A DNA stretch of 43,252 nucleotides from NCBI GenBank assembly GCA_000934665.2, contig JYFJ02003341.1:1-43252 (forward strand). Reading direction: 5' to 3'. The DNA comes from Catajapyx aquilonaris. Its lineage: Eukaryota. Within the stretch, counting starts at the first letter, position 1; the number at the start of each line of letters is the position of its first letter. Below, in pieces: positions 3,972 to 41,724 of this stretch. The notes beneath the pieces were generated by a model, which made no database searches, was not told the DNA's origin, and saw only the letters and a list, made by a program, of their open reading frames with translations. The translations under genes and the position numbers were made by a program.

Positions 3972-5749
3972 ATGGTAACACACCTATTGCTATTTTCAAT
4001 GGCATCATTCTACATTCTACGTCTACAAGAACATTGTGCCTGTCGCAGGGGTCTCGTGGTCTACTAGGATATTAACACTTGAAAATGTTACCGCTCAACC
4101 GACTCGATTCATACGTTGTTTTGGCTCTAGTCATCGGACAAATTGAAGATAAAGGATGTGTCGAGTGCATCGCAGATGTATGGAAATTTCGGCCTGAATC
4201 TTCTGAGCAATACTTGTTCAGCAGCCTGATATTGCAATGGGCAGATGCATTCGAATATTGCCAGGATCGACAAAGCGACCTACTGGTCATACATTCTGAC
4301 CATGAGGAGGTTAGTCGATATAGAAATAGATTATCACTCAATATGTTGATAAAGACACTTAGAAGTCCTCATCCAGGAGTGGCTTGAGACATGGCTGAAA
4401 CAAGAAAGCTCCTCACTGACCTGGTGGATTGGACTGACTCACAACAAGAGAGAAGCACTTTGGAAATGGATAGACGGCAGCCTTCTGGACACAAACATAA
4501 GGTACGGTTGTGTATACATGCACAGATGCAATAAGCGGCAATAAATTCCTCGAAATAATTGAAAAATATCTTCTCACAGCAATTGGCAGCAATTAGAACC
4601 GGACGATGGGGTTGTGGAGAATATTTGCGTCCAATATGTCAAAGGAAGCAAGAAATTAAAAGATGGAAACTGCAAAGAGCGAAATTGTTTTGCATGCTAT
4701 TCTGGTAAGGCTGCATTTTGGTTTTTGAAACGGTCCAACACACAGCCATTTTTTTATCATCGTCTAGGGCCCGATGCACTACGCTCACTGCCTGTACCGT
4801 TCACCTTCACTTCATTGGAGTTATACAATGAAAGAATGGAATGGAGAAAAGCGTACACCACGTGCAGGGAGCGAGGTTGGTCCCTTGTAACAATCAGCTC
4901 TTGGTTGGCAAAGGTGGGTTGTAGCTAGATTAATGTTACAAGTGCTGTAACACATTACGGTCCTACATAAACAGGGAGTTATGGACTATTACATTCTTTA
5001 TGACGAGAGTGACTGCGACACATGGTGGCTGGGCAATAAGGGAGTAGAGGCAACAACCGAGTGGACTTGGGTTGAATACGACGAGCAATTGTAAGTAACG
5101 CCATTGTTGTATGTATTAATGTATAAGGTCGAGTGATGCAACAATGTCATCCAATTACAGAGATGAGTCGACAATGCCAAGCATTGCAGAAGAATGCGCT
5201 GGGATACAGAACGGATTCCTTTCGGATCACGCATGCAGTGAAAGGCTTCCTTTCATTTGCAAACGAAGAATGAATTCTGGAATATCTTTGGGTACGTAGC
5301 ATATTGTAGACCCATAATTGCGCTAAAGAATGATCGAAATTTTGTCCCAAATCTTGAGTTGATCAACAATAAGAATATGTCCAAAAAGTTACAAATCTAT
5401 GCAACATAAAACACTTTTGTCCGAAAGCTTGGCTTATATCACGTAATAAATTGATCAATGTTGAAAATACAATATCTTGCTCTCATGCAGATATCTGGAG
5501 CATTCAAATGGGTTACAATTACCTGATAGTTCTACCGATTCTGGCAGTAATTCTCATCTTACTTGCTGCCATGGCTACAGGTCTTCTGGTATGTGTTATT
5601 ATACTTGTAATTACAATGATCTGTTTACTTAAAACAGTTTTATAGACACTGGGGAATTCAAAAGCTTCATTTGTTTCACTTTGCAGGACACATTCAACAA
5701 AGCGAGAGGTCTGGATTCAGGAAAAGAAAGAAAGATGTCTTATGCTTGA
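3972..5749 (+). CDS. Transmembrane C-type lectin 2 (2 CTLDs, TM)
   Basis: Exons encode WADAFEYCQDRQSDLLVI, WWIGLTHNKREALWKWIDG, WQQLEPDDG...NCFAC, DALRSLPVPF...WRKAYTTCRERGWSLV, YYILYDESDC, ECAGIQNGFLSDHACSERLPFICK, TM LIVLPILAVILILLAAMATGLL. First and last exon boundaries are uncertain. Confidence 0.83.
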
Positions 5750-7004: not shown

Positions 7005-9443
7005 ATGAAAATAGAAGCACGAGGCGTCTTCTTCATCACCTTTGTGTTCATAACAGGTGAGTACTCTACGTACGCTACATTCTCATTTATGTAGCCTACC
7101 TGTAGTTTCAAACTGTCATGATTTATCTGATTTGAAGCTGTTGTATGATTGATTACGCCTGCAATTTCTCCGTCTACTTCTTTGAATTATAATAATAATT
7201 AGCCACATCTTGTATTGTGAGAGATGCATTTTCATGCACAGTACGTACAATAATTCTGAATCACACGGTACTGTACGGAAGCAGCAATTCATGCCAAGCG
7301 ACTTAACTGGTAAGCTCTGCGTTTCAGGATCTTCATATGCAAATGAGAATAGATGCGGAAACAAGTGGACAAAGCCCACAAACTCGAAGAAATATTACCT
7401 TACTTGTAACAAGCAAATGACATGGCTGGAAGCAAGGCACACTTGTCTTGATATGAATAGTGACCTGGTGACGAGTAACTCCTGGCAAGAGCAGGTAAGA
7501 CGAGTTATTTTCAGAATGATATTGACAGCCTCTTACAGTGACTCTAAAAGTTTGTCAGCATTATCCGGAAACACCTTGTATAATAAGCCTTACAGAATAA
7601 CAAGCATCTTTCTAAGAGTATTCAAAACATCTCTAAATTGCTATACGACCCGACTCTAGTTCATTGCCACGAATTATTTCACGAATTACAGTACATATCA
7701 ACCCCATTGTCATTTAAACAATAAGATGATTGTTACTGATTATATGTAAGATTAACTAACATGTGTTAATTATGTTATCAATAAGTAGGTGTAGGTGATA
7801 TACATGAACAATACAATACAATCTTCTATTTTCTCTCAAAACAATAATAACCTCAACATCATTATTTGTCACAGTACGCGTAACTCATTAGGGGTAACAT
7901 GGGGAAAGATCATCACACATTGCATTCTGCCCCTCTGGTCATTGACTGGATTTGATGCAGCATTCCGCAGTACGGGCGGCACTGATACATATTTAAAACA
8001 ATGGTGCCTGATTGTTATTTTGATAAATTTTCCTTTGAGGAATGGATGGCACGAATTCACGCAAAAAACCTAGAATCAACATCATGGTGGACAGGGTTGA
8101 TAAAAGGAACGAGAGGTGAATGGACATGGGTTGATGGAACCAGTTATAACTCCACCGTAAGGTTAGATTATTTTTTAAATGATTAACTTAACTGGCCTGT
8201 TTCTACATGTGATTTATTGCAGTCAGTGGGAAGAATGGGAACCAAGTGGAGGGAAACGCCAACAATGTGGATACTTAACCAGGCCAAGAGGATTTAAGCA
8301 AAGCGCATGTGACGACAAGATGTGTTTCTTCTGCCAATCTGGTTCGTGTGACAGTTATTACTCCTGAAATAATAATTATGTTATTATTATTGAACTTTGA
8401 GTCATAATGTTGTACCGTCATACCTTCATTTCAGGCCCCAATGCTTTGAAATCCCTGCCAGTCCCATTCAGTTACTCTTCCTTTGAGATTTACAGCGATA
8501 ATGTAACGTGGAAAGATGCGTACCGACAATGTCGCAAAAGAGGATGGACAATGGTCAGTGTGAGATCTTGGCAAGACAAGGTATACACACTGTGTGGATA
8601 GTTTAACATGTGTGTTTATCTCATATTATTTGCCACTCCATTTTCCGTCAGGGAGTAGTGAACTACTACCTGTTGCATGACTCAAGAAACAGCTGCTCAG
8701 GATGGTGGTTAGACCATCGAACTATCCCTGACACTTGGCTGTGGTCAAGCAATGTGACTGGGACCAACACAACGTAAGTAACTCCACAATTATTCCGAAA
8801 TGCAAAATTATCTTCATGGTTATTAATGGATCACCATGTTGTGATACAATCCATACAATGCACAGCCAGTGTAATAAGTATTTTGCAGAGTGACTTATGG
8901 CACTACTTTTGTTTGACAGGGAACTCGATACTAATGGAGGAGATGAGGAAAATTGTGTGGAAATGAGCAATGGACTGTTGAATGATGTATCCTGCATGAC
9001 GAAGCTTCCTTTTGCTTGCGAGAAAAGAACAGGCTTGCATACTGAGCCACCAAGGCACAAACACAGAGGTACTCATATGTTTACGTATTTTCATAGCCAG
9101 TAATTTTGTATTTACATAAGTCAAGTGTTACCAGTAGGCCTACCATTAATATTGTAACATTATTTTTTCTAGGTTTACAAGACAAATATGCTACATCAGG
9201 TAGTGAAATTGTGTCTCCTGTGTTGACAATCTCAATTTTGGTGTCTACAATGATGGTAAATTTCAAAACTTCTAGAATGTTAGCTTTCTGAATCACTACA
9301 TCAGAACAATGCTACTTTACTAGGAACAATAATAGAGTGCAAGCATTTTGTATTAGTCTCTGAACAGTTGTTCATTCAAAACCTGTGAATAGGTCATTTT
9401 TATGGAGTCTAGGCCCATCTTCCGATTTATCCGTGTTTTCTGA
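7005..9443 (+). CDS. Transmembrane C-type lectin 3 (2 CTLDs, TM)
   Basis: MKIEARGVFFITFVFITG; MTWLEARHTCLDMNSDLV; WWTGLIKGTRGEWTWVDG; WEEWEPSGG...MCFFC; NALKSLPVPF...WKDAYRQCRKRGW; ENCVEMSNGLLNDVSCMTKLPFACEK; TM IVSPVLTISILVSTMM|VIFM. Last exon uncertain. Confidence 0.83.
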
Positions 9444-10794: not shown

Positions 10795-13700
10795 TCAGCA
10801 TTTCAGAGGTGGTTGCTGGGTCAGAAGCAAGCCGAACTTTTTCTTCATGGTCAGCCGCTCACGAGAGTATTGATCCTGCGGGGAGAATCTAGCTGCAAAG
10901 CAAAAGAGATCATGGCAATAGTGGATGGTAAAACTCCTGTTGCGATCTACATGTCTTCGAAAAAGTTTCAGAATGTGGCAAAATTGCAACTATTTTCGAG
11001 ACACTGGAGAAAAAGAATATCGACCCACATCTCCCTCAGACCCTGGTGTTGCCTGTGATACCTGACTGGACTGCAGGTGGTATGCAGACTCTAAATTTTT
11101 CCCAGGGTTGTGAATCGAAAATAGTTGTTGGGATCTTATGTATCATATCAATACCCTTCCCTCTACAAAAATGCCACATGCTGTTTTGCGTCGTCGGACG
11201 CAAACCTTCCAGGACTTGTCCCCATCTAATCTGATGACGAGACTGGCAATCCAGGAGTTACAATCGGCAGCGAGAAAGACACCAATCCACTATTAACCCT
11301 TTGCCTTCTGCTCAATTATGCACGCTTAGGGTGGGGGTGTAAAAATAGCGCCCTAGGTGAAAATCACTGGATCTGGCGCCATTGGTTTCGCTCTCGATTC
11401 ATGCACAAGAGGGGGCTGAACATTGCGAGATCTACCAACCTATGCTGCATTTCGATAGAGTACATCAACAGCCTCATATACTATGCAGGAGAGGGTGGCG
11501 TCATCCTATTGCGACACCTAGGCGGGTTTTTTTAGGCGGCTTCCACCCGAGTGTAACAAGACCCTATGCTGAAATTTTAATGGTGGGTAGGGGACCCCGA
11601 AACAAAACATTTTTGACCAATGAACCCACCCTCCTTAAAAATCATCAAATTCACTTAAATCAATAACTGGTTAGTGCCTGTAGTAACAGTTATGTGGTTG
11701 CTGCTACTCTACAGTAGCGTTGTCATGGTAGTTTTGACAATTTAGTACAGTACTGTAAAAGGTCTTCACCACCACAAATCAATGAACACTGACATGAAAC
11801 CGACCACCACCTCTATTGCACCTCACACAAACCTGTAATCAAAGGAGCTGCTCAAAGTGTCCTCCAGCCACTTGTACGCACAGCCTACAAAGACGCACAA
11901 GAGATTCCTTAATCGATTGGAGCACCCCGGGAATACTCAACTTCAGGATATGTTGCGCTGCGCCATGGATTCGGGCCACCAAGTCCGTCTCCGATTCCAC
12001 TGGTGTGGCATACACGAGGTCCTCTAACCACCCCCAAAATCAGAAGTCCAGGGGATCTCGCAGGCCAGGCCATCGACCCCCCACAGCCTATCCACCTGCC
12101 TGGTAAGGTATCATTGAGATGGGCACGCATGGCAGAGCACAATCGTGCTGGAACCACATCTGTGTCCTGATGTGTGGTGGCACATTATCCAGTAATTCCG
12201 GAAGGACACCCTGCAGGAAAGCCAGATACATATCCTCATCAAGGCGAGATTGCAGCATGTATGGGCCGAGCAACTCATACTCCCACAATCCCAGCCCACA
12301 AATTGATGGCAAATCGGCACTGGTGCCCGTGGACATAGGTGCGATTAAGATTCTGGTGCTCCGGGATGTTCCTGTTGCTAAATGCATCTCACTACGTGCA
12401 CATTTCCACCCGCAGCCCCATACGCAAGGTGCATGTTCGCGAGTTCCCCCCATGTGAATCGCTGCATCTTGTCTGGCAAATGAATACATACTGTAACGTG
12501 GCCCAGTGGAGGGAAGGGATTGCAGGAATGGTACAATGTTCTTATCTCCGGTAGTAGAATTGGGCACAAGCAATGGGCACAACACTGAATTGTTTATTTT
12601 ACCAAGAGCTAAATTTTACTTATGTTTTTACTGACAATCACTTGTCAACACTTCCATGACAACGCTATTGTAGAGTAGCAGAAACCATATGACTGTTACT
12701 ACAGGCACTAACCAGTTATCGATTTGATGATTTTTTAAGAGGGTGGCTTCATTGGTCATAAATGATTGTTTTGGGGTCCCCTACCACCTTTAAAATTTCA
12801 GCATAGGGCCTTGTTACACCCTGCATATGATTGTCCATTCCCTCTGATGAATTATGAAACATTATAATGTCCATTTAAAATGATGTTATGTGATCTGCCA
12901 GGTGCAAAAATGGTGGCTCAGGTGGCAAGCAGGCACCGTCTAGAGCTCAAAGCAGTCCGCCCAGCCACTTAGGAGCGAAGTCACTTTCACGACTGCAATG
13001 GCGCCTGAGGAGTTTGACTACCATTCACAAATCGTTCTGATTTTTTCCCCGGCGAAAAGTAAGTTGCAGAATTTCGGGAATTTTAAAATGATTTTCAGCT
13101 GCACATCCCCTTACCGAGAAATATGCAGCAGGGAGCCGTGTGGATTTAAATTCATGCAGTGTTTGTTTACCTTTGGTATGTGACGTCATGCTTTTAAAAA
13201 TATCACATGAGAGGCAGTAAATACTCATGAACATAGACTTAAGCAACTCTTCTAGTTTCTACGGTGAAAGGAATTTCCTTCTGGGTTATACAGTGCTGGA
13301 CAAATTAGCCGTCGCTGAATGTTTTTTCTCCGGCGGCGGCGGCGGCGTTACCTGGCACCCCGTCCGGCGGGCCAATTCAAACATCAGCCCATGGAGAGCG
13401 CTTCCATTGTTGCCACTGTTTACAAATCGAGTGAGTGACCCCAAAATAACTTATTGCTTCTAACATCCTTATTTTCCCCGTTTTCTCCTGCATATCCCTG
13501 CAGATACTGTGTAAGCAGGCAGAAGAGACCCGTCGCTGGGTCATCCGCGTCACTCACTCGATTTGTAAACAGTGGCAACAATGGAAGCGCTCTCTATGGG
13601 CTGATGTTTGAATTGGCCCGCCGTACAGGGTTGCCAGGTGTCGCCGCCGGAAAAAAACATTCAGCGACGACTAATTTGTCCAGCACTGTACCATGGAATT

Positions 13701-14363: not shown

Positions 14364-14879
14364 TCTTGTGCCGCAACAATACTTGCGAAGGAAGGGAGAC
14401 CACGCCAGATGCAGAGCACGCTCCTTGGGCCAATATGGCGGAATAACAATGCGGGGCCGAATCGGACGCAGCAGCTTTGTCACTCACTATCATGCAGCTT
14501 AAATGGGCTGTTGTTTATAATTTAAATATGGTGGTACAGTACTAGTAATTATGTAACAATTTTTAACATGCAGCCGACGTTACGTATTACGCCAGATGGC
14601 TCGTGCCAGCTGACGCGTATTACAACTAATAAGCGGCTACTTGTAGCCGAATAGCCAATAGCGTTGTTGGCTAACTTCTTTGGTGATGACCAGCCAGTGT
14701 CCAGCGGTCCTCTCTGGCTTCTCCTGGTCCGACGCTGCATCCACACCCTGAAGCACAAGCCCGGAGACAACTCGTAGCTGGAGTGAAATCAGAGCAGTGG
14801 TGTCACAGGTAATGTTGCTGAGTACATGTTCAGTGCGCTTGACGCTTACAGTTTTGCTCCTTCAGAACATCCCGTAACG
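14364..14879. promoter_or_regulatory. Divergent promoter / 5' UTR region shared by NOP10 and MED7
   Basis: Start codons face away from each other ~516 bp apart; CCAAT at ~14654; likely MED7 5' UTR intron 14809-14865 (cag|gtaatg...ttcag). Confidence 0.6.
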
Positions 14880-15595
14880 ATGTCGACGGAAGCCACACAA
14901 GTGAGCTCCCTGCCGCTGCCTCCGCTGCAGTACATGAACCTCTACACGGATGAGAATGTCCGTCGAGGGAAGGCGCCCAGGCCACCGCCACCCATACACG
15001 ACTCGTACTCCATGTTTGGGAATTCCTTCCATGCCGACGATACCATCATTCGACCACTTGAAAGCCAGGTAAATACACATGCAGGAGCGAATCGTACAGC
15101 CAACTGACCTTTTTGTACTTGTAGGGTATCCGCCGCCTGTACCCGCAAAACTTTGACCCGCGTCGTGAGCTTCGGAAGCTCAACCATTCCGTTTTGGCCA
15201 GCTTTCTGGACCTGTTGGAGCATTTGGTGCGTAGTCCTGAGTCGCCGCGGCGGGAGGAGAAGTTGGAGGACGTACAGCTTCTTCTGGTCCACATGCACCA
15301 CTTGGTGAATGAGTTCCGTCCGCACCAGGCACGTGAGACCCTCCGAGTGGCCCTGGAGATCCAGCGCAGGCATCGGCTGGAGACTGCTGACCGCTTCCAG
15401 AAGCACCTGGATGCGGCTGTTGAGATGCTGCAGCAGGCACTGGCGGCGTTGCCAGGTGCGGCTGATCTGGACTGCAAGCTTCTGGTCCCCTTACCTGGTG
15501 AGGGTCAGGGTGGTGGAGCCACGGACACAGCGGAGGCAGCCGAGGATTGCAATGGACTGGATAGGCTCATGTGCGATATTGTTGACGCATTATGA
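14880..15595 (+). CDS. MED7: Mediator subunit 7 (219 aa, 2 coding exons)
   Basis: Exons 14880-15068 and 15125-15595: QVSSLPLPP...YSMFG...[15 protein letters not shown]...ELRKLNHS...[19 protein letters not shown], characteristic MED7 motifs. Confidence 0.95.
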
Positions 15596-16262
15596 GTTGC
15601 TTCTGCTTATGCTGAGTGTCCTGTGCATCTCATTGGTACAGAGTTGACAGTCATGATCTGAGAGGTACATTTCAATATGAGAATTAGGAAGGTTGTGTGT
15701 CAGGCGCTGCAAAGTTAAGAGGTATTCCTAGGCAAGCGAAAAGAAAAGAAAGTAATTGACACTCTTGTTGTCGTTAATTGCGAGCATGGATCCTGTTGCA
15801 GAGTTATGATTGGGAGACAGAAAAAGATACTTTTTATACTTTTTTGTGTCACAATACTGCGAATAGCATTGTACAAATGCTCCAAGTGGGGCGCATTACC
15901 AATGAACCTTCAATTCAGCTTTCCATATTTTTTACCATGCATCACATCGACAGTAGTGTTTTCTGGGACTGCTTTTTCTATGAGGTTGTCCACTGTCTAA
16001 TGAGGTACCCACCAAAGAAGGGCTTGCAATGAGAATATGAAGTGATGTAAGATATAATTCATGTTAAAAGTAAGTTTAGAACACTTGGCGATGTAATGAG
16101 TATCCTGATGCATTATCGTGATTCATTATTCATGTACAATACTGTACCATTGGCATTAAATTAATGGTTTATACATTCATGAAATTTTTTATTACTGAAC
16201 CAGCAAATATGGTAACAGTGATATATTTTGTTTGATAAGTGTTTAACACTTATCGGATGGGC

Positions 16263-19096: not shown

Positions 19097-21751
19097 AAGT
19101 CCCGGCTAAGTTTGCCTATATGAGCGTCATTGAGCGAATGTTACACTTATCTTCTAAAGTCAAATATGAAAGGAAATTTTTTGGGATATGAAAGATTTTT
19201 TAAAATTGTCTAGTCAATATTTTATTTTTGCAATAAGCACATACACTGTCATACACTGCTACATAAGTACAGAGTGCAGTTTATTTAGGAAATGGTGCAT
19301 TAAAGTCTTTCTTACTTCTGAATGAAGCCATAAAGTCACGGGATTTACATGCTGACCTAATATAGCCATCTGTTGCCTCCTCCGTAAAATGCCTCGGATG
19401 CTTCAGTTACCACCTACACGCATCTTTCCACTGCTTGAGAGTGACATGGTAGCGTTACGACACGGGGTTCCTCAATTATTATCCGCTCAAGCTTTTCGAT
19501 GGAGAACTGCATCGTGAGAAAATGTTTCGGGCCTTCTGTACATCTTGGGTGACGTTTGATCCTGAACCACATGGGTCCATAGTGGCACACGACGCACTGT
19601 GCGAGTAAGCGCAGCTCTTCACAGATGGCCCGAAACATTTTCTGCACCAAATCAAGCTGCTAACAGTATTGCCACTGGCAAGCGAGGACATTTTATGGCG
19701 TGTTATCCAAAGAAACGCGTATTGGGCTCACCATGAAAATGTGTTACTAGCGATGCTTGCAGATGATGACCATGAAAACTGGAAATTGGCAGTCGATGTA
19801 ATCAAGAACCATTCCGCAACTTCCCAAACAACAGCCAGCCAGAGAATTTCGGCCTCCAAAGGTCCTGAAAAGATCTCAGATTTTGAACGATCTACTTCCA
19901 CCAGTGGAAGAGTGCAAGAAGGAACCTCCACTCCCGATGCAGTTCTCGATCGAAAAGCTTGAGCGGATAATAATTGAGGAACCCCGTGTCGTAACGCTAC
20001 CATGTCACTCTCAAGCAGTGGAAAGATGCGTGTAGGTGGTAACTGAAGCATCCGAGGCATTTTACGGAGGAGGCAAGAGATGGCTATATTAGGTCAGCAT
20101 GTAAATCCCGTGACTTTATGGCTTCATTCAGAAGTAAGAAAGACTTTAATGTACCATTTCCTAAATAAACTGCACTCAGTACTTACGTAGCAGTGTATGA
20201 CAATGTATGTGCTTATTGCAAAAAGAAAATATTGACTAGACAATTTTAAAAAATCTTTCATATCCCAAAAAATTTCCTTTCATATTTGACTTTAGAAGAT
20301 AAGTGTAACATTCGCTCAATGATGCTCATATAGGCAAACTTAGTCCTAGCCGGGACTTGAACTCAAGTCCCCAGAGGTGGGAGGCAGTGGCCTTAATCAT
20401 CTCGACAAACCCTGCTACCCTTTCTTTGGGAGTAGCTGGAGGAGTAGTGCTTCTTTACTGACAAGAATGGAGGAGTTGGGAAACGAGCATCGCCTTGCGC
20501 GGAGGGTCACTATTCCATTTTGTTGGGGCTTTGCTGTTGGTTTCCTGTCAACCAAATTTGGCACAGGAGTAGAGGAGACATAGCTGCGATTCCCTATGTC
20601 ATGCATTTACCAATATGTCTGCAACCATGTCGCTGGTAAGCATTCATTGGTCTAAGTTGGCCATTTTAACAATTTTCAAGGTCAAAAAGGGGGGTGTTAC
20701 ACTTGTCGGAAAAAAAATATCTTTTCATATATGAAGTTTGGGAGGTCCACTTAACAAAACCTGAAATGTGCCTCCAGATCGCCCATGACGCTACACCCTA
20801 CTGTGCAATGTCCACTTACATTACACTTTTTGCTGCAGGTAATGCGATCTGTGCATGTGAGCCACTCGTAACTTACCAAAAAGTAAATTTAAGAAGTTGT
20901 GAAAGTGCTGCACTGTCCAAGTTCACTTAATGCATGTCAACTAAACCCAGCTTTGTCAGGACAATTGCCTTCGTCAATCAAGTGACACATATTTGAGAAA
21001 ACAATTTATCTAGAATTCTAGCTACCGGTACATGCGAAAAGTTGTGAAAAATTTACTTATCTATATATTCTAAGAAGAAAATGTATAATTATGATAAGTG
21101 CTATGAAGGAAAATTGAGAGCGAAAAGATGTAGGTACTCCAGCATGTGATAACAAATTCAAGAGAAATCATTGCAGAAACTCTCTCATCAAGGTGACATG
21201 AGTAATCCAATAAGTGCTAAGTTCTATTTTTAGTTAAGTGTATGTCCACAGTACACAGTCCCCCTGACTGCCCCTGATTAGTGTTGACCTTCTTTCTCTT
21301 TCACTATTGTTCAAGATGGTTATCTCATATCTTGTCAGTACCGAGAAGTGCTTAGCAATGAGAGCACAGCATTTGTTGTTTGGCTGCGTAGGCCGCTTAT
21401 AAATCAGGATATCAGTGTGATATGTGGGGAGCGACTGACAAACAAAGGTGGATTATATTTGAACTCTTGAGCAGCGTTGGTGCGATATGCAGGGCTTATC
21501 TGACTAGAAACCATATAAAAGACCCGAAGAACCGTTGCGTCTACTTTTTCCCAGTTATACTTCACATAGTCAGGGTACAATTTTTTGGCAGTTGTCAAGG
21601 GTTGAAGTGGCCAATGATATCTGAGGGAAGTAGAAACTCCTGCCTGCTCTTCTGGCATCAAATAAATTTCCTGATTTATTTGTGATGAGATGATTAAGAC
21701 GACAATCATCAATAGTACAGGATGTTAACAGCAGAAGAAAAGCGTCAGAAA

Positions 21752-24700
21752 ATGACATGGATGTCTTCCACTCTGCTGTGGCTCGTTTGCCATTCAGTGC
21801 TGCTCTGCGCTGGTAAGTAAACAATATTGCGTTCATAATTGATACCTGATGACCGTCCAAACCAAGCATGTGACAAAATTTTAAAATTGCCCACAAAATA
21901 TTACAGATTAACTATTACTACTGTTGTAACTATCTAGCTGGGATGCCATTGCTACATGTGTCATAGTGTTATAATAGAAATTATAGGATAATTATTTTCT
22001 TCGTTTTTTGGGGGGGGCTAATTTTGGACGCAATCAGAAACATGGTACTCCTCTTCATTTAGCATACTCTTTCACAGTTACTTAGTGACTCACCACCTGA
22101 GCCCCAGTGATCGGCCATAGTCATGACCATATGCAAGCATGGATGATAAATGGTGCATTCCCATGTTACTATCAATGATGTTTGTGAAATATGCGCACTG
22201 CTCCCCCGCTCGTCCTACAACAGTTATCTTATCAAATCTGGATACTTACACTATATCATTATAGCCTTTTGCTGTAAGTCTAATTCTGTTGACTGGATTC
22301 TGGCATTGGACATTTAATAATCAGATTCTTCAATAACAACTGTAAATTGGAGCATACTCTACATTATAAAATGTTAATGCTGAATTATAATGCCCTACCT
22401 GCGTAGTGATAAATGGCAGTTATTTTCATTTCTTCTTATTGTTGTTTTGGCAGTGGAGAAATGCACAGGAAACACTTTATCGAAGATGTCTGGCCACACA
22501 CATGACGAGGATTGGGCCAATCTGCTCTTTCCTGACCAGCGTATGACATGGACAGAAGGAAACACATTTTGCCAAAAGAATGATGGCCACCTCCTGGTGG
22601 TCAATTCGGAGGAGGAGGAGGTAAACTAGTTGCAAGAGGATCAGCATTATTGTCATTGACATAGGCCTACATTAGACGGATATTTTCCTCAGGAAACACT
22701 GCGTAATCAAATGAACTCTCAACTGAACAAGACAGCTTTTTGGGTTGGCCTGAAGTACCACAAAAATATGGGGCAATGGAAATGGACCAATGAATTACCG
22801 CTAGACAGAAGAATAAGGTAAGCGATTGCAAATATGATAATAAAAAGTTATGGCAATTCAGTCACATGTTTTAGGACCAATATTTGACACATATTTTGTC
22901 TCATTTCAGCCCATGGGACAAGTGGGAACCTGACACCGAAGATTCTGGAGAAGGATGCGTTGAATATGTCCGAGGAGGTGTAGGAATGAATGACATGCAT
23001 TGTCGAGAAGCCAGGTGTTTTCTGTGTTCCAAAGGTAACACATCTATCACATGTATCAAAAAGGCTTTTGACATGTTTCTGCCTTCCATCATCACTCGAG
23101 GGGTGATTGTTCCATAAATCCAGCTCGTCCAAAACATTTTTTGAAATAAATAAAATATAAAATAGGGACTAAAATATTGAAACGTAAGAAACCAACTTAC
23201 CTTCTCAGATCCTGATGCGTTGAAAACAATGCCAGTGCCATTCAGCTACAAGGTCTTGGAATTCCACAATAAGAGGGTCACCTGGAAACAGGCGTATGAA
23301 ACTTGCCGAGAAAAAGACTGGTCGCTTGTCAGAGTTCCAACCTGGCTTGAAAAAGTAAAGTCATTATTTACATAAAAATAGACTTGATTTGATAAAAATA
23401 TTTGTCACCTTCACACACAGGGAGTTCTGAATTATTACATTCTGTACGACGAAAGCGACTGTGAATCCTGGTGGCTTGATCGAGACAACAGGACTCAGCA
23501 CGAACAAGTGCAGTGGATTGAAACTACCTCACATGATTCAGTGTAAGTGTTTTACTCTATAGCCTGTCACTATTTGTAATTCGATGCATATTTTCAGGTC
23601 GCTGTCATCATGGCGTCCTAAGATCCGCAGGGAAGAAGAGCACTGCGCTGTGATAAGAAATGGCCTTCTTTCTGACCATCCATGCGACCAAAAATTTCCA
23701 GTTATTTGCGATAAGAAATCTAATCAAGGTAGTGAACATTTACGCCAAATATTTCACTCTTGAGACTGGTTACAAAATAATGGGTGTTCCTCCACACAGG
23801 CTTTGAAATAAAGGTTCGAGTTGTCTTGCACCTGCTTTACTCCTGCTGTGTAGTTCCACACACTATAATCATGGTGTTATTATTAGTAATGGTAGGTTTT
23901 TTTTCTACGATTTATGCTGACGTACAATGAGGCGTGACGAAAATTTCGTTAATAATTGAAATATTTTACAGGTGTCGCTTGGAATATTGCGCTTCTACAG
24001 GCATGGCATTAGGTTGTCTGGATTACAACTACTCAAAACCCTCGAAATAGAAAATTGCACAATTCTTGAACACTATGTAAGTATAGCCTATAATTAAATA
24101 TTATTACTATCTTATTTTTGAAAAAGGTGATATGTTTCCCTCTCATTGCTTACTCTGTAGGTACCTGAAGATTCGTCCCTGTGTGATCCTCCAACTGTGA
24201 CAGGCGCTCATGATGAGCAGACAGAACCTAATGATAAATGGACTTGTAGTCCCTACCTTTCTACAGAGAAGTATGGCAAAGTTTGGAGTCCTCCTATGAT
24301 GCGAGACGAATCAGGTGAAAAAGGAAGCTGTGATCAAATCAAACTTATTGAGGAACCTGAAGCACCATGCAGATATGATGCAAGTGACAAATCACCTGAA
24401 AGAGAAGTTCTTTTTGCCAGAAGTGTTTCTGTTACAATGCAAATTGATCCTATTGTGACAGATTACCCTAGGAGTGCATCAATGGTAAAGGTGAGTACAC
24501 ACCTACTTGTTCAAGAACTTGATTGGAAAGTATACAGAATTACTGTAGTCCATTGTAGACAGCTGCTATGTAAACGCTTGGTTAACTTTTCAGAAAGCAG
24601 ATAAGATGTTGTTTGATGCATGCAAAGAGAACAACTTGGAGAAGGTGAAGGAAGCACTGGAGACAAGGGGTATTCAGGAGCTGATGGAGGTACACCAGAA

Positions 24701-25226
24701 CCAGAGGACTGCACTTCATGTTGCTGTTGAGTGCAAAGCTGAACCAGTGGTGAAGTACCTTCTGGATAAAAATTGGCATGTTGAAGGACGGGACAGCAAA
24801 GGCATGACTCCTCTTCACTTAGCCGCCATGGGCGGTCATGTGGCCATGTGTGAACTGCTGATTGAAGCAGGCTCTGATGTGATGAGCAAAGATTTATCTG
24901 GAAATGAGGCCCTTCATTTAGCTGCTACCAGAGGTAACGTGAGTATTGCGGAGGCCTTAATTCGAGAAGGGGCTTCTATAAATAGCAGAGGAGGACGCTA
25001 TGGAGACACACCCCTTCACATTGCGGCACTTAGACACCATGAAAATTTGGTTCAATTTCTGCTTGACAATGGAGCAGATAAGGAAGCTGCGAATGCAGAA
25101 GGAAGGACACCTGTTGATGTGGCTGGACATCAACGTATTGTTTCTCTCTTACGGAATTACAGAAGTGAAGCTAGGGCAAGGACAAGGGGGGTAAACCACA
25201 CATGTATTTACAAGTTAATTAAATGA
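21752..25226 (+). CDS. Transmembrane C-type lectin 4 with predicted cytoplasmic ankyrin-repeat domain (~678 aa)
   Basis: Exons 21752-21812, 22454-22620, 22693-22817, 22910-23034, 23209-23354, 23421-23542, 23598-23728, 23800-23891, 23972-24076, 24161-24490, 24594-25226 are all GT-AG and phase-compatible with no internal stop. CTLD1 has FWVGL, WEPD, MND; TM IIMVLLLVM|VSLGIL; ankyrins RTALHVAV, GMTPLHLAA, GNEALHLAA, GDTPLHIAA, GRTPVDVA. A further donor at 25191 may add a short last exon. Confidence 0.78.
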
Positions 25227-25384
25227 CACTCAACCATGTTATGTATTGGCTATTTTCCATATATTTTTTCCCCAACAAGCAATGTAGACTGTGATGGGAA
25301 GTTACCCAAGTGGGTCTGAAGACACCATTCCAATGAAGCTCAGCAGCTGTTAGTTCCTACTCTGGAATGATTATCTTGGGGATG

Positions 25385-26813
25385 TCACTGCATAGTCTCG
25401 GAGTAGTCTCGGTTATTAGTATCGGAGTAGTCGTGGGTAGTACCAGAGTAGTCGTGGGTAGTACCAGAGTGTGTGCCACCAGTCATGGAGGAGCTGTAGC
25501 TATTCCTGCAGATGTAGCCATTCTTCTCATAAGGCGCGGGGTATGCTGCAGCATGTTTCTTGTAGGGACGCCATGTGCGTCGTTTGGACTGCCTCTCGTG
25601 ATTCTTTTCGAGTAATGTCTTTGGATGCTGGAAGTAGGTGGTATCAGGCATCTCTCTGCATTCTCCATGGTACCTAGAGAAAGGGGTTTGATTTTGACCT
25701 TGTCTGTCCGGAGACACACTGTGCTTCTTCCTGAAAATACAGGGTGTTCCAAGTGATATGTGATGTGAGATTAATAATTTGTGTTTATCGCTGTAAGTAT
25801 GACTTCTTAAAGTCCCAATTGTTGCTTACTTCAGATTGATATTCACTAATGATCTGGTTTCACTGTCACTGTCTACGGAACTCTTTCTGACGTGAAGTGT
25901 AGAGAGGGCAGCATTCATATGGGCCTTCTCCTGGGAAAGTTTTTCCTCATAGGCCACCCAGTCCGGGAGTTCCTTGTTGTACTTGTTCCATGGGTGCTTA
26001 TGCTCGAGGGTGGGCTTTTCAAGGTTGAATTCTGGCAATGGTTCATAACCAGGGCAGGCAAATAATATTGAATTGCGAGTATTATCAGGGATGGCTCGAT
26101 AGGTGTAAAACTCTGCTCTGCTCATTTTGCTAGGGGTTGCCCTACAAGTCTGCTTCCTGAAGAAATAGATATTATCATAGAATCAAGTGTCAAGAGTTAG
26201 AACTAATTTGGCTTACTGTGCATCACCCGCTTGATAGCAGTTATTGTAATAATTCATGGGGTTCATATTGTAATTTTCCAGCTCTCTTTCATATTGTTTC
26301 ATCCAGTTCTTATTGGTATTAAAACTTTCCAGCTCACGTTCATACTGATTGATCATATTTTTGGTATCATAATATTTGCCGAGGTCCTTAGGAACACCTG
26401 GGAGGTGGTTACATAATGACATCAGCATTGTTGTCAATATTAAGCAAGGTAAAATGTGCAATGTTTAAAAAAAATTTGCTGCCACAATATTATGTTGATT
26501 TGTAACCGAAATAATTACCGTAACTACTCTGTGTCAAATTCCGGGATCCAATTTGACCCATGCCTGGTTGGCTGGAGACGTTCGCAGGGCAGGTCACAGG
26601 TCGCTTGGGATGGCCACAGGTCCCAGGAAATGGGCAGGGTGGCCACAACTGCTGATCACTGTAGAATTGGCATTTTTGACCCAGGGAAGAACGAGACTTC
26701 CTTGAGTTCCTGATGACACTGGCCAGAGGGTTGTCCCAGCTGCCTTCCATGTCCGAGTGGTACCTCCTGGCAGCTTGTGTTAAGCTTGTGGCAGGGCGTT
26801 CAAATGTTGCCAT
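25385..26813 (-). CDS. Uncharacterised 4-exon gene (382 aa), no recognisable domain
   Basis: Exons 26813-26519, 26397-26217, 26156-25830, 25730-25385; donors gtaatt/gtaagc/gtaagc, acceptors all cag; phases 1,2,2 join four separate ORFs into one 1149 nt frame. Confidence 0.75.
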
Positions 26814-27250
26814 ACTGATGGTTCTTGGTGTGTTTTGCCGGTTGATTTTGTAAAGAATTACATGAGAGTCAGTTGGGAGCTCTCTTTAATGCACCATGTC
26901 CGTAGAGGTGGGGACAAATTTTATTATGGGAGTTTCTCTGACAACTACATTGTTTGTTGGGGATCAATATTGTTGTGAACTTTTTTGAAGAGTAAAGAGT
27001 AAACAGTTTGTAACAAATCTTAATCACTGTGAATAACATCAGCCCTCATTTGCATGCACCATGCAGAAGGCTACTTATTACGCATCAGTTGTGATTCACC
27101 GATTACAAAAGGCAGCATGATTACAACCTGATTATGAGTAGCAGAGATGTGTGGACATAATACTGAACACTAAACTATGTGTGACCTTTGCCATGATCTG
27201 ACTACTCACTGTCAGATCAGGGTCAGCTTATTTTCTTACTGAAAGGCATT

Positions 27251-29131: not shown

Positions 29132-31002
29132 ATGAATATGTTTTCGTACAAGAAGTGCTACATTCTCTTAGCTGTCTTGGCCCGTAAGTGTCTAAGCATG
29201 GCAACAATAGCATTAATTGTCTTTTAGTCCTGAATGATTGTCTTTCAGACGCTCATGATGTGGCAGAAAACCAGGTTTGGAAGCCTGGTCCGACCCCAAC
29301 GCATTTCTACATGTTCTCAGACCAGGCCTTGCCTTGGAAAGAGGCAAGTCTGGAATGCCAAAATAAAGGGGCCTCCTTAGTCATCATAGGATCACCAACA
29401 GAGCTGGTGAGTTCAACAACAATGCAAGGTATAAACTGCTCTAATCGAAACTACCAACAGAATTGGCTGCAGCAATGGCTGCCAGAGGTCAATAACAATC
29501 GGTCAACATGGGTTGGACTGACCTTGGAGGACAGGCAATGGCGATGGATTGACGCTCGGCCACTCAACACGCAAATTCTGTGAGTGGTACTCATTACACG
29601 ATATCACAAAAGTGCTATAATAGCCACATTGTTGCAGGAAATTTTCACCAGAGGACAAGCAACAAGCAGCGGATTGTGGAGAGTATGTGAAAGACAGTGG
29701 TACTATTGCACACGCACCATGCGAGGACATCAAGTGTTTCATATGCCAATCAGATGGTCAGTTACAACTGTGTTCATATTGTAGAAAAATTTTGGTTTGT
29801 TCTAAGTACAAATTAAATCAGAATAATTTAATTTAACCCAATAACGAAATATTTGACAACTTCAGCTAGGAGTAACAGTCCAAAATTAACTGCTAGTAAC
29901 TTATGGGGAAAAATCCATTGCAAAAATCACATGCTGTTACAGACATTTTAATCACGTTTCAGGATTTCAGCCTAAATGGAATTCAGGAAAGTTGGCCTGG
30001 ATGGATGCTTACGGTAACTGCACCATGGCTGGAGAGAATTTGATGAGCATCAGTTCATTACGTCATAAGGTAATCACATGAATGCGAGTTAGACTTGACT
30101 TGCGTAAATGTGAACCTCTAATTAAATTACAGAAAGCACTGCTTGACTCGGCCACAAGAGGCCAACATTCCAACTGTGAGAGGGCTTGGATTGGACTGGT
30201 GAATGTTCGTGGATCATGGAAGTGGGTTGATCAACGCCAGCTGGATTTGCGCCTTATGTAAGTCTAGCATGCATCATTATTTTGTGAAAAATTGTTGTAT
30301 GATTTGAGAGTATTGTTACAACCAGTAATTTCAAAATATACTTGACATCCTTCGCCTATTTTGTTTTAGGCAATGGGAAAAGGCTCAGTCGGAAATAGAA
30401 GAGAGCAAATGTGCCAAAACCAAGCGAGGGCAATACTTGTACAACTCCCTGTGCACACAGACGAGACCTTTTGTGTGCGAAAAGATATTTCCAGATTCTG
30501 CAAATGAAACAGAACGTAAGTATTTGTTTATATTATTACAGTCAAGTATTAGACGATTTAGGCTACTGCCTTGAAACAGTCACAAAACCTGAAAATAATA
30601 TCACATCATCATCATTTGAATTTCTAATTTTAAATTAATGTTTTCCTATGCAGCGGCAGAGAGTAAACGCGATTCAAGAGCCATAATGACAGGTGCAATT
30701 GTTGTAGTAATCTTAGCTGCAGTGATAGGTGCAGCGGTGTGTCTGTACATAAAGGTAGGTACACTTCTGTATGTATAACTTAAAAGGGGCCAATAACAAT
30801 ATTAACTTAATACAGTTTTAATTAATCGAAGCATAAGAAAACACTTGCCAAGAAAAAACCAGAGGCATCTGCGGAACAACACCTTGGTGTTCATTATTCC
30901 GTAAGTGTCCGCAGCTTTTTGTTGATGTTTCCGCCAGTGGGTTTAATTATTAATTTCATTCACTCTCAGAACATTGATGGAAATGAGAAGGAAGAGGGCT
31001 GA
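29132..31002 (+). CDS. Transmembrane C-type lectin 6 (2 CTLDs, TM, tail with VHYSNI)
   Basis: MNMFSYKKCYILLAVLA; LPWKEASLECQNKGASLVII; TWVGLTLEDRQWRWID; HAPCEDIKCFIC; AWMDAYGNC; AWIGLVNVRGSWKWVD; LCTQTRPFVCEK; TM IMTGAIVVVILAAVIGAAVCLYI; stop 31000-31002. Confidence 0.85.
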
Positions 31003-32752: not shown

Positions 32753-33337
32753 TTAGGATAATGATATTGTCTTCTGCCTCTTTGATGGGTGAGAAGATGA
32801 GTCAGAGTCGGATTCGGACTCACGTGAGTAGCTGAAGTCCGATTCAGTCTTGATGTGCACGCCACCAATGGACCCACTGTTGCTGCCGTTGCCAAAGCCG
32901 GCCATGGAATCCGGTGCTTCACTGGCTGCTGCCACTGCAAAATTGCCAGTAGCCCTGGCCTGGACTGGACCAGCGATGGACTCGATCTGACTCGCCAGTT
33001 TGGAGTTTTGCACCTTGAGATTATCAATGTCCTGCTGATGCGCCGAGTTCTTCCTCCGCATGAACTGTATGTAATCAGCCGCCTTCTTGAGAATCTGTGC
33101 CCGACTGGCCTTACTCTCACCTTTCAAAGCAGGTACGGAGTCCCGCAGGCTGGAGAAGCTGTCCTTGATGTGATCCCGCCTCTTCCTCTCCAACGCATTG
33201 TGGTGGGCCCGCTTATCCGCCTTCAAATGCTGCGGCACAAATCCATCCTGCGGTGATCCTCCCGGCTCACTGTCCATCATCAGGAAGTCATCACCATCAT
33301 CGCTGTCCATGTCCAGGTCCCTCTCAAAGTCGCTCAT
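32753..33337 (-). CDS. Max: Max (Myc-associated factor X) bHLH-Zip protein, single coding exon, 194 aa
   Basis: [69 protein letters not shown]; acidic N-terminus MSD..., basic C-terminal PSKRQK. Confidence 0.95.
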
Positions 33338-33904
33338 CTTACCGTCACTTCTATTGAAACCAAAATTAGTGGTGGAAATGCAACAGGAGTGTGATACACT
33401 TGTACCCACCGTGGTCCAGTCCTTGACTAACACTCCTATCCCAGCCTTATGCAGACGGCTTGCTCACTTTTTATCTCAGAAACTCCTTTCCAAGACATGT
33501 GTCTTTGGCCATGTTGTATGCCATGTTGTAGCCATGTGTGGCGATTGGACAAAAATCGCTGAACAGTTATAAAGTGCTGCTATTTTTTTAAATATATATA
33601 TGATCTTCAGTTGATCGTAATGTGAGATTTTAATCGTCAGTGATCTGTATGTTTCAGTAATGTACGGTAGCGTACATTTCAGTTTTAAAGAGCACTTGTT
33701 GTTTAAACGAAGTGTTGATACAAAAATAGCAATAGCAGTTAAAGCTGCTTTTGAAAAATAGCTGTTAATTCCATCGCTACCACAAGCGAAACGGGGCGAA
33801 CCTGGTGGAGGATTACTGAAGCTGCGTCTACAAGCCTTGTATCGATGTATCGGTGCGATTTTTTTTTTCAAAAAGTTTATTTATTTATACCGAATCAGCG
33901 CTTT

Positions 33905-34759: not shown

Positions 34760-36745
34760 ATGGATTGCTCCTGGTCGTTTGTTTGTGTCCTCGCTGGGAT
34801 ACTCACAGGTACGTACAGTATACATTGCGCGAGTGCACGTTAAAGATCCCCAGAGTGGCCAAATTTCCAGGATCTGCATTATGTTGTACTTGTACATTGT
34901 TGGTTTGAACGTCATTAATACCATATATGATTGACAGGTAGATGCACATCACACGAGTGGGTAATGCGAAATGAAACAATATCAACGTACATGTTCAGCA
35001 CCCAACCGTTGTCCTGGTCGGACGCGAAAATATTCTGTGACGAGAGTGACAGCAGTCTACTAGTAGTCAAGTCAAAAAAGGAACAGGTCACTTTGTCAAA
35101 ATATTATGTAGGCTACATCTTGAAACTATCAGCACTTGATCAAGGTGAAAAGCTAACTTCACCTTGATCGAGTGATGATTGTTATAGTAGAGCCAGGATA
35201 CCGTTAGTGAAACATTACCTTCACTATGTTCATTAAAATAATAGCGCTGTATTTACAGAAATGGTTGCAGGAAAAGTTAAAAGGGCGTAGCCAGCCTAAT
35301 ATTTGGTGGATTGGACTGACCTACGATGAAGAAGAAGCAAATTGGGAATGGACTGATGGACACGTTCTTGATACTGACATTTCGTATGGTACATTTTTTT
35401 AAACAATAGGAACACAACATACACTATGCTTATTGTTGCAGCACATGGGACCAGTGGGAGCCTGACAATGGAGCTGTAGGACAAGAATGTGTCGCGTATG
35501 TCAGAGGAAACGTGGATTTGAATGACGATCATTGCACGACCAAAAAATGCTTCATTTGTTATACTGGTACAGTACATCCTTTCACTGTGTAACAATCAGT
35601 TTGGACTAATTGTTACTGCATTTGTTGCAGGTCATGATGCCTTACTGAGACTACCAGTGCCGTTTAATTACGAGACAGTAGAATTTCATCAAACCAAAGT
35701 GGACTGGAAACGTGCTTTCAATATTTGTAGAAACAAGGGTTGGTCTCTTCTTAAGATTGGCTCCTATCTTGAAAAAGTGAGTAACAATATTTGAAAAGTA
35801 CGACAATTGCAGTACATGTAAACATGACGTTTTTTAAAAGGGAGTGTTAGATTACTACATATTATATGATGAGAGTGAGTGTAGATCATGGTGGCTGGAC
35901 AAAGACAAAAAGACAGCTTCAAGATGGAAATGGACTAACCCGACTCTTGACCAGTCGCAGTAAGTTCATTGGATTAGAATCATAAATATTTGAACACAGG
36001 TAGTTTTTGACAAAATTGCATCATCTTGAAAAATATTCATCCTTATGATTTTATTTTTCAGATTATATTCGCAACCTGGTTCAAAAAGTGAATATGCAAA
36101 TGAGAATTGCGCTGCAATACAAAACGGATTTCTGGGAGATTATAACTGTAGAGAAAAATTGCCTTTCATATGTAAACGAGAATTTACTCCCAGGTTATCT
36201 CAGGATATGCCAACACACGAGATAGGTATAATTATTGTCAGATTTTTAAAAAGGCCCAATTTTGACAGTAATTTGGTGCACCATGCAGGCCTATAATATT
36301 GTTATGGTGGGTTAGAGCTCTAGACGCTAGAGTTTGCCTAAATTCCACTAGAGAAAATTAAATGAATATGAAATTTATGCTCACATTATTTGCTGGTTTT
36401 GAAAACGTTTTGTAAACGTCTGGCCTGCATATACAGTATAACATAATTATAGTAATTATTGTTTCTCCCGTACAGAATTTTCGACATTTATTACGAACTT
36501 ATTTATTCATCTAATATTTGGGATAATTATTTGCACAGCTGTAATTTGTATTGGAGTAGGGATATCAGTACTTCTTATGGTAAGTTTACAAAATCCCCTA
36601 TACTGTCCACTTACAATGCTAACGAGGACTATTTTATTCACAGAAAATGTATTATACTACACGTTTTTATTCGTTTATGAAAGGGATCAGAGGACACCAC
36701 AAAAGCTCAGTTGACACTACCAGCGATGCATCAGAGTCCTCCTAA
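34760..36745 (+). CDS. Transmembrane C-type lectin 7 (2 CTLDs, TM)
   Basis: MDCSWSFVCVLAGILTG; LSWSDAKIFCDESDSSLLVV; WWIGLTYDEEEANWEWTDG; WEPDNG...LNDDHC...KCFIC; DALLRLPVPF; YYILYDESEC; NCAAIQNGFLGDYNCREKLPFICK; TM LIFGIIICTAVICIGVGISVLLM; stop 36743-36745. Confidence 0.88.
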
Positions 36746-39794: not shown

Positions 39795-41724
39795 ATGCTT
39801 AGGACCATTGCAGCTGAAAGAGTGGTCATGGGTGGGAGCACTTCATTATCTGCTCGCTTTTCCTATTCTAATGGATATCCATGGTGGTTCAAATTGGCCG
39901 TAGTCCTGCTACTATGGGGTAGGTTTACACGGCTTCTTAGTCTTGTTCTGTCGGTCCATCATGATTTGGTTTGTTATTGGCAGCTATAGTAGCCATCGTT
40001 CATTTTGCAGTTGGCTATAGCATTGGCTCACAATGTTGTGCCGAAATGTGACAATATGTAATAATTAATTGTTGCGTATAATGACAGGTGGTCCAGTGGC
40101 AGGCGATGAATGGGTCCATCGTCGAGGATCACTAAATACCTATCTTTTCCAAGAAGGAAGATATACTTGGTGGGATTCCAAACAACACTGCCAGGACTTA
40201 CAGAGTGACCTACTTGTCGTATCATCAGCTGAAGAAATGGTAGAGTATACCGACCACTGTTCATCTGTTCATATGACTTGTGGGACATTATTATTTGCAG
40301 ACATGGCTGCAGGGAATTGTTGGAGAAAAAACACAAGAGAAGTGGTGGATTGGATTGACGGATAATGGTACGGAAGCATACTTTAAGTGGACCAACGGAC
40401 GTGAATTCGACACATCCATTACGTTAGTAGTTGTTGACTAAATTCCCATCAAACAGTGATGTTGCTGATGAATGTATGTTGCAGGAAATGGTCTGAAGGA
40501 GAGCCTGACAATGGTGGAGAAAGATGCGCAGTATTTCTGCCTCAAGAAAAAGGCTTCCTTGATATTGACTGCACAGAATTGAAATGTTCCCTATGCTGCA
40601 AGGGTAGGTAATACATGCCGTACACTGACTATCACTCAACGCCGTAATGACCCATTCTGCAAGTATACTGCACCTGTTTTCTCTATATAGGAGCGATTTC
40701 CTCTTCATACCCAGAGGTGGATAAAGACAAAAAGACATGGCACAGAGCGTATCGTACAACTCCTCTAAAGAACATGGAACTGTGCGTGATCAAAACTCTC
40801 CAGGACATGGTATGATCTGATCTGAACAATATGTGGGACAATGATCATTTTGAATAGCTAGATTAATTATTTTCGAGCGTTTTCCGAACCCGTATAGAAA
40901 AAACTGAAGACATTTGCAGGCACCCTACTAGATGATACATACTGTGTAGATTACTGGGTGTCTCTCCAGAAACAAGACAAAGGGGTCTGGCTTTGGATGG
41001 ATGACAGAGAAATGGATCCTCAAATATCGTAAGTAAGTCACATAATATCACCTAATCTCATGTGGTAATACCACTACTTGTTTAACAGTCCTTGGGTACC
41101 TGGAGCTCCTCAGACGATAGTGGAGGAGGACTGTGCTGCGATTAATAAAGATGGAACCTTCAACGACTTAAACTGCAATAGTCAGGAACCTTTCATTTGT
41201 AAGAGGAGTCTGACTACCTCACCAACAGGTAATGAACTCTCTTTGTCTTTTTAAAGACTGTTTATATGGATGAAATGGCTGGCTGATTTCTTGCAGAAAA
41301 GACGCCTGCTTATGATGATTCCTCTGAGTCAATCCTGGTAGAGTTTGGCACGACCTTTGAATTACCATATGCAGAGTCACCGTCTTCAAAGGAACAAGTG
41401 CATCAAGCGCCAGTAGCACGACACTTCACGATAAAAGTTACTCTCAGCTGGGTGAATAGCATTGCTGTAGTTGTTGGAGTATCGCTACTTTTCATTGCTA
41501 CTGGATTTCTGATTGAGGTATGTAAAATAAATTATTGTCGTATAAAATATCCTAAACTAAAAATACTTGTCAAATTTTTTCCTGGTAAGTTACAGATTAT
41601 GTATTGGGTGTGCACAAGACCTGGGGGATATCAGGGAGTGCCAGCTGATGGACAGCAAGATGAAAGCGATCCAAGTGAACATTGTAATACAGACCAAGCA
41701 CCACAAAATCTGGGCTCCACGTGA
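39795..41724 (+). CDS. Transmembrane C-type lectin 9 (2 CTLDs, TM)
   Basis: Leader ...PWWFKLAVVLLLWG (start codon uncertain, 39795 or 39828); YTWWDSKQHCQDLQSDLLVV; WWIGLTDNGTEAYFKWTNG; WSEGEPDNGGERC; DCAAINKDGTFNDLNCNSQEPFICK; TM IAVVVGVSLLFIATGFLI; stop 41722-41724. Confidence 0.85.

Follow-up and report, generated by a model that had tools for sequence, protein, structure and literature searches.

Gene structure and transcript evidence

The DNA analysed here (the window) is a stretch of 43,252 nt from Catajapyx aquilonaris (contig JYFJ02003341.1 of assembly GCA_000934665.2, forward strand) that contains an array of C-type lectin domain (CTLD) loci. At one of these loci, 21752-25226 on the + strand, an initial annotation had proposed a gene for a receptor with two CTLDs, a transmembrane (TM) segment and intracellular ankyrin repeats. 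Direct reading of the locus with three-frame translation gave an 11-exon model that accommodates all the splice sites claimed in that annotation.

The 5' untranslated leader (21701..21751, + strand) begins where the transcript contig described below begins, at 21701. Exon 1 (21752..21812) carries the start codon and a predicted hydrophobic signal peptide and ends in phase 1 at a GTAAGT donor, with the contig joint at 21811/22453. Exons 2-4 (22454-22620, 22693-22817 and 22910-23034) encode the first CTLD (CTLD1), according to Pfam Lectin_C matches, the translation and the contig joints. Exons 5-7 (23209-23354, 23421-23542 and 23598-23728) encode the second (CTLD2), which was assigned from a Pfam match in exon 7 only, alignments with paralogues, the translation and the contig joints. 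They are followed by exons 8 and 9 (23800-23891 and 23972-24076), where hydropathy and contig joints place a hydrophobic segment and then a basic juxtamembrane stretch. Exon 10 (24161-24490) encodes an acidic linker of 110 residues rich in S, E, P and D and is delimited by the contig joints 24076/24161 and 24488-90/24592-94. Exon 11 (24594-25226) contributes the ankyrin-repeat domain, recognised by Pfam Ank_2, an AlphaFold2 (AF2) model and matches in the PDB, and the stop codon (25224-25226). All exons lie on the + strand, as does an ATTAAA variant of the poly(A) signal that overlaps the stop codon (25218..25236, the latter position being the contig end). An in-frame ATG at 21722, 30 nt 5' of the start codon at 21752, also lies within the transcript contig; a start at that position would put ten mostly charged residues ahead of the signal peptide.

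The donors have GT in all ten cases, six of them in the form GTAAGT, GTGAGT or GTAGGT, and each of the ten acceptors is an AG after a pyrimidine-rich stretch. Exon 9 ends at 24076 before the donor GTAAGT, exon 10 measures 330 nt with phase 0 at both ends and the donor GTGAGT, and exon 11 starts at 24594, preceded by TTAACTTTTCAG. The splice coordinates and phases that had been proposed for this part of the gene (24076 with GTAAGT, 24161-24490, and 24594) all proved correct on direct reading. Joined by coordinate, the exons give 2037 nt, that is 678 codons plus stop, with no internal stop. In the three-frame translation exon 10 is open in one frame only, the one that joins exon 9 to exon 11. 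The introns of the gene are short (55-641 nt). Since introns 9 and 10 measure just 84 and 103 nt, there is no promoter-sized gap before the ankyrin open reading frame, in agreement with what the initial annotation had stated.

Transcript evidence came from the sole public run found for this stretch (X1), the kind of which is not recorded and the contigs of which are Logan de Bruijn assemblies. One contig of 2098 nt (word depth 34.8, contig depth being a poor gauge of expression level) spans 21701-25236 and joins all 11 exons. It starts 51 nt 5' of the start codon at 21752, ends 10 nt 3' of the stop codon and omits all ten introns at their GT..AG ends, including those at the junctions 24076/24161 and 24490/24594, which the initial annotation had singled out for checking. 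Because the introns are absent exactly at the predicted borders, the contig descends from spliced RNA, either directly or via a retrocopy. Each of the ten junctions is proven by the assembled contig, which also provides strong evidence, though not absolute proof, that all exons reside on one molecule. The claim that the CTLD-CTLD-TM-ankyrin arrangement forms one spliced open reading frame is thereby supported, with 678 codons in a transcript-derived contig. Since the ATTAAA at 25218 overlaps the stop codon, position 25236 may be the true 3' end. Contigs were placed on 21000-27000, and beyond the gene their cover in this interval consists of one 133-nt piece (26868-27000). The 2098-nt contig differs from the window at two letters, 24301 (G>A) and 24999 (T>A), and it therefore derives from another individual or allele.

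Domain content of the encoded protein

Pfam profiles were scored on the translations of exons 2-11 one by one. Exons 2, 3 and 4 match, in order, positions 2-27, 31-63 and 69-107 of the Lectin_C profile (E 6e-4, 1.4e-4 and 1.7e-3; scored singly, 20.9, 23.0 and 19.5 bits, the cut-off being 22.6), so that CTLD1 matches the Pfam profile PF00059 over the whole domain. For CTLD2 a Lectin_C match was found in exon 7 alone (profile positions 69-107, E 7e-5, 23.9 bits), and exons 5 and 6 gave no Pfam match at E<=0.1. This domain is also backed by the same three-exon layout as in CTLD1, by tblastn alignments in which it pairs with the second domain of paralogues and by its cysteine and WIGL-like pattern.

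The Ca2+-dependent sugar site of classical C-type lectins consists of EPN or QPD plus WND. The translation of CTLD1 contains a WIGL-like motif, and EPD and MND stand where the classical site has EPN/QPD and WND; the cysteines and most of the Ca-site residues are retained, and this domain may still bind Ca2+ and sugar. CTLD2 has RPK and LSD in place of EPN and WND, and there is consequently no canonical sugar/Ca site in it.

After the signal peptide, the sole hydrophobic segment covers approximately residues 298-333, with a Kyte-Doolittle maximum of 2.51 at residue 308. It is interrupted by a phase-0 intron (exons 8/9) and has basic residues (R/H/R) on its C-terminal side. Exon 8 gave no Pfam match and exon 9 a match at chance level only. 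We read residues ~298-333 as one putative membrane helix. With a signal peptide at the N-terminus and a single hydrophobic segment thereafter, the ankyrin repeats should be cytoplasmic, and we infer that the 678-residue product is a type I protein crossing the membrane once. Of the five N-x-S/T sites, two lie within the CTLDs, N-terminal of the membrane segment.

A tail of about 137 residues, with a net charge of -9 and rich in S, E, P and D, separates the membrane from the ankyrin repeats. Its exon 10 part has no match to a Pfam family and a mean pLDDT of 43.2 in a single-sequence AF2 model, a value that fits disorder and in itself constitutes weak evidence. The acidic tail is probably disordered.

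Exon 11 matches Ank_2 (PF12796) with E 3.2e-46 in three stretches and Ank (PF00023) with E 8.3e-35 in four. Its translation contains TPLH motifs and four canonical repeats between an N-terminal and a C-terminal capping repeat, and the AF2 model of the exon (pLDDT 73, pTM 0.72) shows five clear helix pairs and a sixth of low confidence. Exon 11 thus encodes tandem 33-residue repeats that match the profiles and fold as helix pairs in the model, and the ankyrin domain comprises 5-6 repeats, the number given in the initial annotation. In the PDB, the closest matches of the ankyrin exon were DARPins, ankyrin-1, NOMPC, latrotoxins, TRPA1 and tankyrase, and no IkB or Notch chain occurred among the best 60 of 400 matches (E<=1e-10). 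As judged from these comparisons the domain is of a generic kind, near the repeat consensus, and has no specific likeness to IkB or Notch.

The lectin array

To place the gene in its surroundings, 450 of the 451 stop-to-stop frames of at least 45 aa in the window were scanned against Pfam. CTLD exons were found at seven other loci, and the only ankyrin frame was exon 11. In tblastn comparisons with the spliced protein, the other CTLD loci aligned to residues ~40-296 only, which correspond to the two CTLDs.

A six-frame hydropathy scan of the window gave 16 segments with a 19-residue mean of at least 2.3. Besides the segment of the gene studied here, six of them are TM-like segments (Kyte-Doolittle 2.5-3.6) that lie on the coding strand ~120-320 nt beyond the final CTLD exon at six of the seven other CTLD loci, against ~0.7 such segments expected by chance (crude Poisson P ~1e-4). 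These six dual-CTLD loci are found at 1512-2858, 4214-5612, 29188-30751, 34931-36579, 38839-37346 (- strand) and 40144-41514. Four of the six segments finish at a phase-0 donor-like site, matching the arrangement of exon 8 in the gene studied here. Pfam matches were absent from the putative cytoplasmic tails of these six paralogues. The seventh locus (7408-9100, + strand) has no comparable segment, the best downstream hydropathy values being 1.87 at 9208 and 2.17 at 9734, and it may be secreted or decayed.

Given the TM-like segments after six of the seven other loci, the array probably consists of membrane-anchored dual-CTLD proteins and not of secreted lectins. From the sequence comparisons, the features peculiar to the present member appear to be the long tail and the ankyrin domain, with ankyrin repeats in no other member. 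The proposal that one member of the lectin array had gained an intracellular module therefore needs qualification: the ankyrin repeats are indeed unique within the array, but the membrane anchor is probably not a new acquisition.

Comparison with known systems

Arthropod lectins with two carbohydrate-recognition domains (dual-CRD), such as the insect immulectins and crustacean dual-CTLD lectins, are secreted. They have in common with the present gene a signal peptide, two tandem CTLDs, an arrangement in tandem arrays and one variant sugar-site motif. Such lectins are treated in two reviews as pattern-recognition proteins (PMC10312389, PMC9028835). Unlike the secreted immulectins, the transcript described here does not end with the lectin domains but runs from CTLD2 into exons 8-11 with their hydrophobic segment, which sets the protein apart from the secreted class.

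In the CTL-X class of C-type lectins, the extra domains (CUB, Sushi, EGF, Ig and similar) are extracellular. The likeness to this class lies in a membrane-anchored arthropod CTLD protein that bears additional domains. Tribolium TcCTL15 exemplifies the class as a transmembrane multi-domain insect lectin (PMC9954269). Literature searches, within the portions of text that they returned, yielded no CTL-X protein that has either ankyrin repeats or a folded domain in the cytoplasm.

Among vertebrates, the type I CTLD proteins include layilin, chondrolectin, the CD93/thrombomodulin group and the mannose-receptor family, in which linear motifs on short cytoplasmic tails serve talin binding or endocytosis. 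They share the topology proposed here, with one or more CTLDs outside, one helix and a cytoplasmic tail, and the likeness is one of layout. We know of none that contains ankyrin repeats.

The initial annotation had also pointed to Notch and to IkB, Cactus and Relish as systems in which cytoplasmic ankyrin repeats act in signalling. Like the predicted protein, Notch is a type I receptor that combines an ectodomain for ligand binding, a flexible linker of ~100 residues and a cytoplasmic ankyrin domain. In contrast to Notch, no EGF, LNR or Notch-family Pfam match was obtained with the exon translations or the 450 window frames. The canonical RAM motif of Notch, hydrophobic-W-hydrophobic-P, is absent as well, exon 10 having only the variant V-W-S-P. 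With IkB, Cactus and Relish the protein shares a block of about six ankyrin repeats, which could in principle bind a Rel-family protein. Unlike the case of Relish, the 450 frames gave no match to a Rel-homology domain, and instead of the IkB phospho-degron (D-S-G-x-x-S) the tail contains only D-E-S-G. A special likeness of the ankyrin domain to IkB, Cactus or Notch is thus not borne out, its best matches being repeats of the consensus type (DARPins, ankyrin-1, NOMPC).

Relatives, novelty and origin

The ankyrin exon was compared with similar-length and with longer proteins. Among 995 similar-length candidates there were 112 matches at E<=1e-20, with a best identity of 45%; no entry was near-identical, so the window's own protein is absent from that collection. 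Among 8000 scored candidates of greater length, 6308 matched; the matches listed, at least 120, were all giant ankyrin proteins and none had PF00059, which is weak evidence because the list is swamped by proteins of that kind. With exon 10 as query there were 38 longer candidates, and not one of them scored. A phmmer search of exon 10 against 1.84 billion representative proteins gave eight matches at E<=1e-3, all of low complexity: each is broken into 4-16 short stretches, and the proteins concerned are rich in T, S, A and G (P0237 in E and S). A blastp comparison of residues 1-470 with 240 retrieved proteins returned a single match (E 0.006), located in the linker, so that the lectin part was left uncovered. 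In a metagenome scan, exon 10 had 87 pattern matches of which none was confirmed, and the ankyrin exon 182 of which one was confirmed (L001, generic, 35% identity).

To our knowledge, the published architecture-based grouping of CTLD proteins contains no CTLD-TM-ankyrin group. Full-text literature searches likewise returned no protein with CTLD, TM segment and ankyrin repeats in the passages retrieved, and in the retrieved parts of two papers CTLD and ankyrin domains are mentioned separately only (PMC8242945, PMC6321704). The statement that this layout does not correspond to a described receptor accordingly stands, as far as the searched proteins and the retrieved literature passages extend, no named family having emerged from either. 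Automatically predicted database proteins with the same layout may well exist undescribed. Its kind is otherwise known from C-type lectin receptors of the membrane and from type I receptors with an ankyrin tail.

Three features of the locus are consistent with capture of a single-exon ankyrin unit. The exons of the lectin part measure 61-167 nt, whereas the ankyrin domain resides in a single exon of 633 nt. Exon 11 has an in-frame ATG at 24606, four codons past the acceptor and with A at -3. The frame of exon 7, if left unspliced, stops 10 codons past the donor and resembles the short ends that follow the final CTLD exon in the paralogues. Around the ankyrin exon there were no marks of transposition or retroposition, neither inverted repeats nor flanking direct repeats of note, and its GC content is similar to that of the surroundings. 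There is no support for a horizontal acquisition of the exon, be it bacterial or viral, nothing nearer than 45% identity having been found.

Neighbouring genes

Housekeeping and regulatory genes are interspersed in the lectin array and gene density is high. Pfam matches identified Nop10 (10798-10989, - strand), MED7 (14787-15592, + strand; E 4e-30, near human MED7 in the PDB), a weak match to EMC4 (15719-15997, + strand) and an exon of a bHLH transcription factor (32756-33463, - strand). The 3' part of a hemocyanin-superfamily gene (102-1034, + strand) contains three Hemocyanin_C pieces of arthropod type; among solved structures it comes closest to a chain with the deposited name 'TK receptor', followed by insect phenoloxidases and chelicerate hemocyanins. 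Within the window this gene is the sole pointer to the host lineage, and it indicates an arthropod; the insect affinity implied by the initial annotation is not established. A convergent gene on the - strand (25388-26885) finishes at a distance of ~100-150 nt from the lectin-ankyrin gene's 3' end. It has three long frames (146, 118 and 131 aa), none with a Pfam match, and within the last one 2.6 copies of a 21-nt unit stand in tandem (25417-25470), encoding a heptad rich in Thr, Tyr and Ser.

Interpretation and rival explanations

In our view the locus is probably one expressed gene of 11 exons, arisen by capture, for a receptor of 678 residues with a signal peptide, two CTLDs, a membrane helix, an acidic linker and ankyrin repeats. 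A membrane dual-CTLD gene would, in this lineage, have captured a downstream single-exon ankyrin unit by way of two new introns. The CTLDs would face outward and might bind a glycan-bearing ligand on a microbe or a cell surface, CTLD1 being the likelier sugar site, and the flexible acidic tail would present the ankyrin domain, a generic protein-binding scaffold, to a cytosolic partner. A multivalent ligand could cluster the receptor and thereby alter binding or bring the ankyrin domain together with its cytosolic partner, so that recognition would be coupled to uptake, to cytoskeletal anchoring or to a signalling adaptor. The plain reading would be that of an adhesion, uptake or scaffold receptor. 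A signalling role is at most an inference, and the initial suggestion of a 'signalling chain of an undescribed recognition system' is unsupported.

Several points weigh against this interpretation. The transcript support consists of one assembled contig from one run of unrecorded kind, which is silent on 5' ends, isoforms and protein. The topology is based on hydropathy and charge alone, and a hydrophobic stretch of 36 residues is unusually long. CTLD2 rests on one exon match together with paralogue alignment and a cysteine pattern, and the PDB matches indicate no particular partner for the ankyrin domain. The protein and metagenome searches found no orthologue and no fused relative, so that conservation or purifying selection is unsupported. 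Finally, each of the two differences in the contig replaces an amino acid: the linker has M405I, and Y604N affects an ankyrin repeat immediately ahead of a TPLH motif. Two variant sites carry no statistical weight, however.

The latter observations would suit a young chimeric gene, transcribed and with an open frame, that evolves neutrally and has no selected receptor function. Such a gene would explain why the homologues of the linker in 1.84 billion representatives are low-complexity matches only, why the ankyrin exon has no close relative (best 45% identity) and why the two variants both change the protein. We nevertheless regard it as unlikely, since the frame is kept across all ten introns, the ankyrin part has undamaged repeats near the consensus (E 3.2e-46), with TPLH motifs and confidently modelled helices, and CTLD1 has kept its cysteines and most of its Ca-site residues; the contig depth of 34.8, a poor measure though it is, also suggests expression above trace level. 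Rather unlikely, too, is a conjoined read-through, in which a membrane dual-CTLD gene and a separate small ankyrin gene would normally each be expressed alone and the fused message a functionless by-product of splicing. Here the exon 11 ATG at 24606, with A at -3 and followed by a typical N-terminal capping repeat, could serve the small gene, the ankyrin part occupies one exon where the lectin part is divided into exons of 61-167 nt, the protein searches found no fused relative elsewhere, and contigs are blind to transcript starts. On the other hand, exon 10 has a splice junction at either end and no open frame but the one linking exon 9 to exon 11, the introns of 84 and 103 nt leave no space for a promoter outside coding sequence, and a single unbranched contig covers the locus from the leader to 10 nt past the stop codon, beside ATTAAA.

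A further-reaching possibility is that the ankyrin domain tethers a transcription factor, of the Rel/NF-kB type or another, in the manner of IkB, or is cleaved off upon ligand binding in the manner of Notch, and that glycan binding would directly free a nuclear signal, so that one protein would lead from recognition to the control of transcription. The layout is compatible with this idea, as it combines an ectodomain, one helix, a flexible linker of ~137 residues with a W-x-P element and an ankyrin domain; nothing observed speaks specifically for it, and we consider it improbable. That the joined contig is an artefact, either an assembly chimera or a processed retrocopy instead of a product of current expression, seems hardly credible. 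The kind of run is unrecorded and Logan contigs are de Bruijn assemblies, but the ten joints fall exactly at GT..AG sites that had been predicted from genomic sequence alone and keep one frame throughout, no more than two of the contig's 2098 letters deviate from the window, and a retrocopy would itself derive from a fully spliced 11-exon message. The gene is thus real and expressed, and is apparently a lineage-specific chimeric receptor gene.

Significance

The weight of the finding is limited in that the gene is known from one genome and the searches found no orthologues. How arthropod C-type lectins relay recognition into the cell is poorly understood, and most of the lectins studied are soluble and need a separate receptor. 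A protein in which lectin domains would be linked across the membrane to a folded domain for protein binding is a candidate for direct lectin signalling or for lectin-driven uptake. The locus would also illustrate cleanly how a tandem array of receptors acquires a new cytoplasmic module by exon capture.

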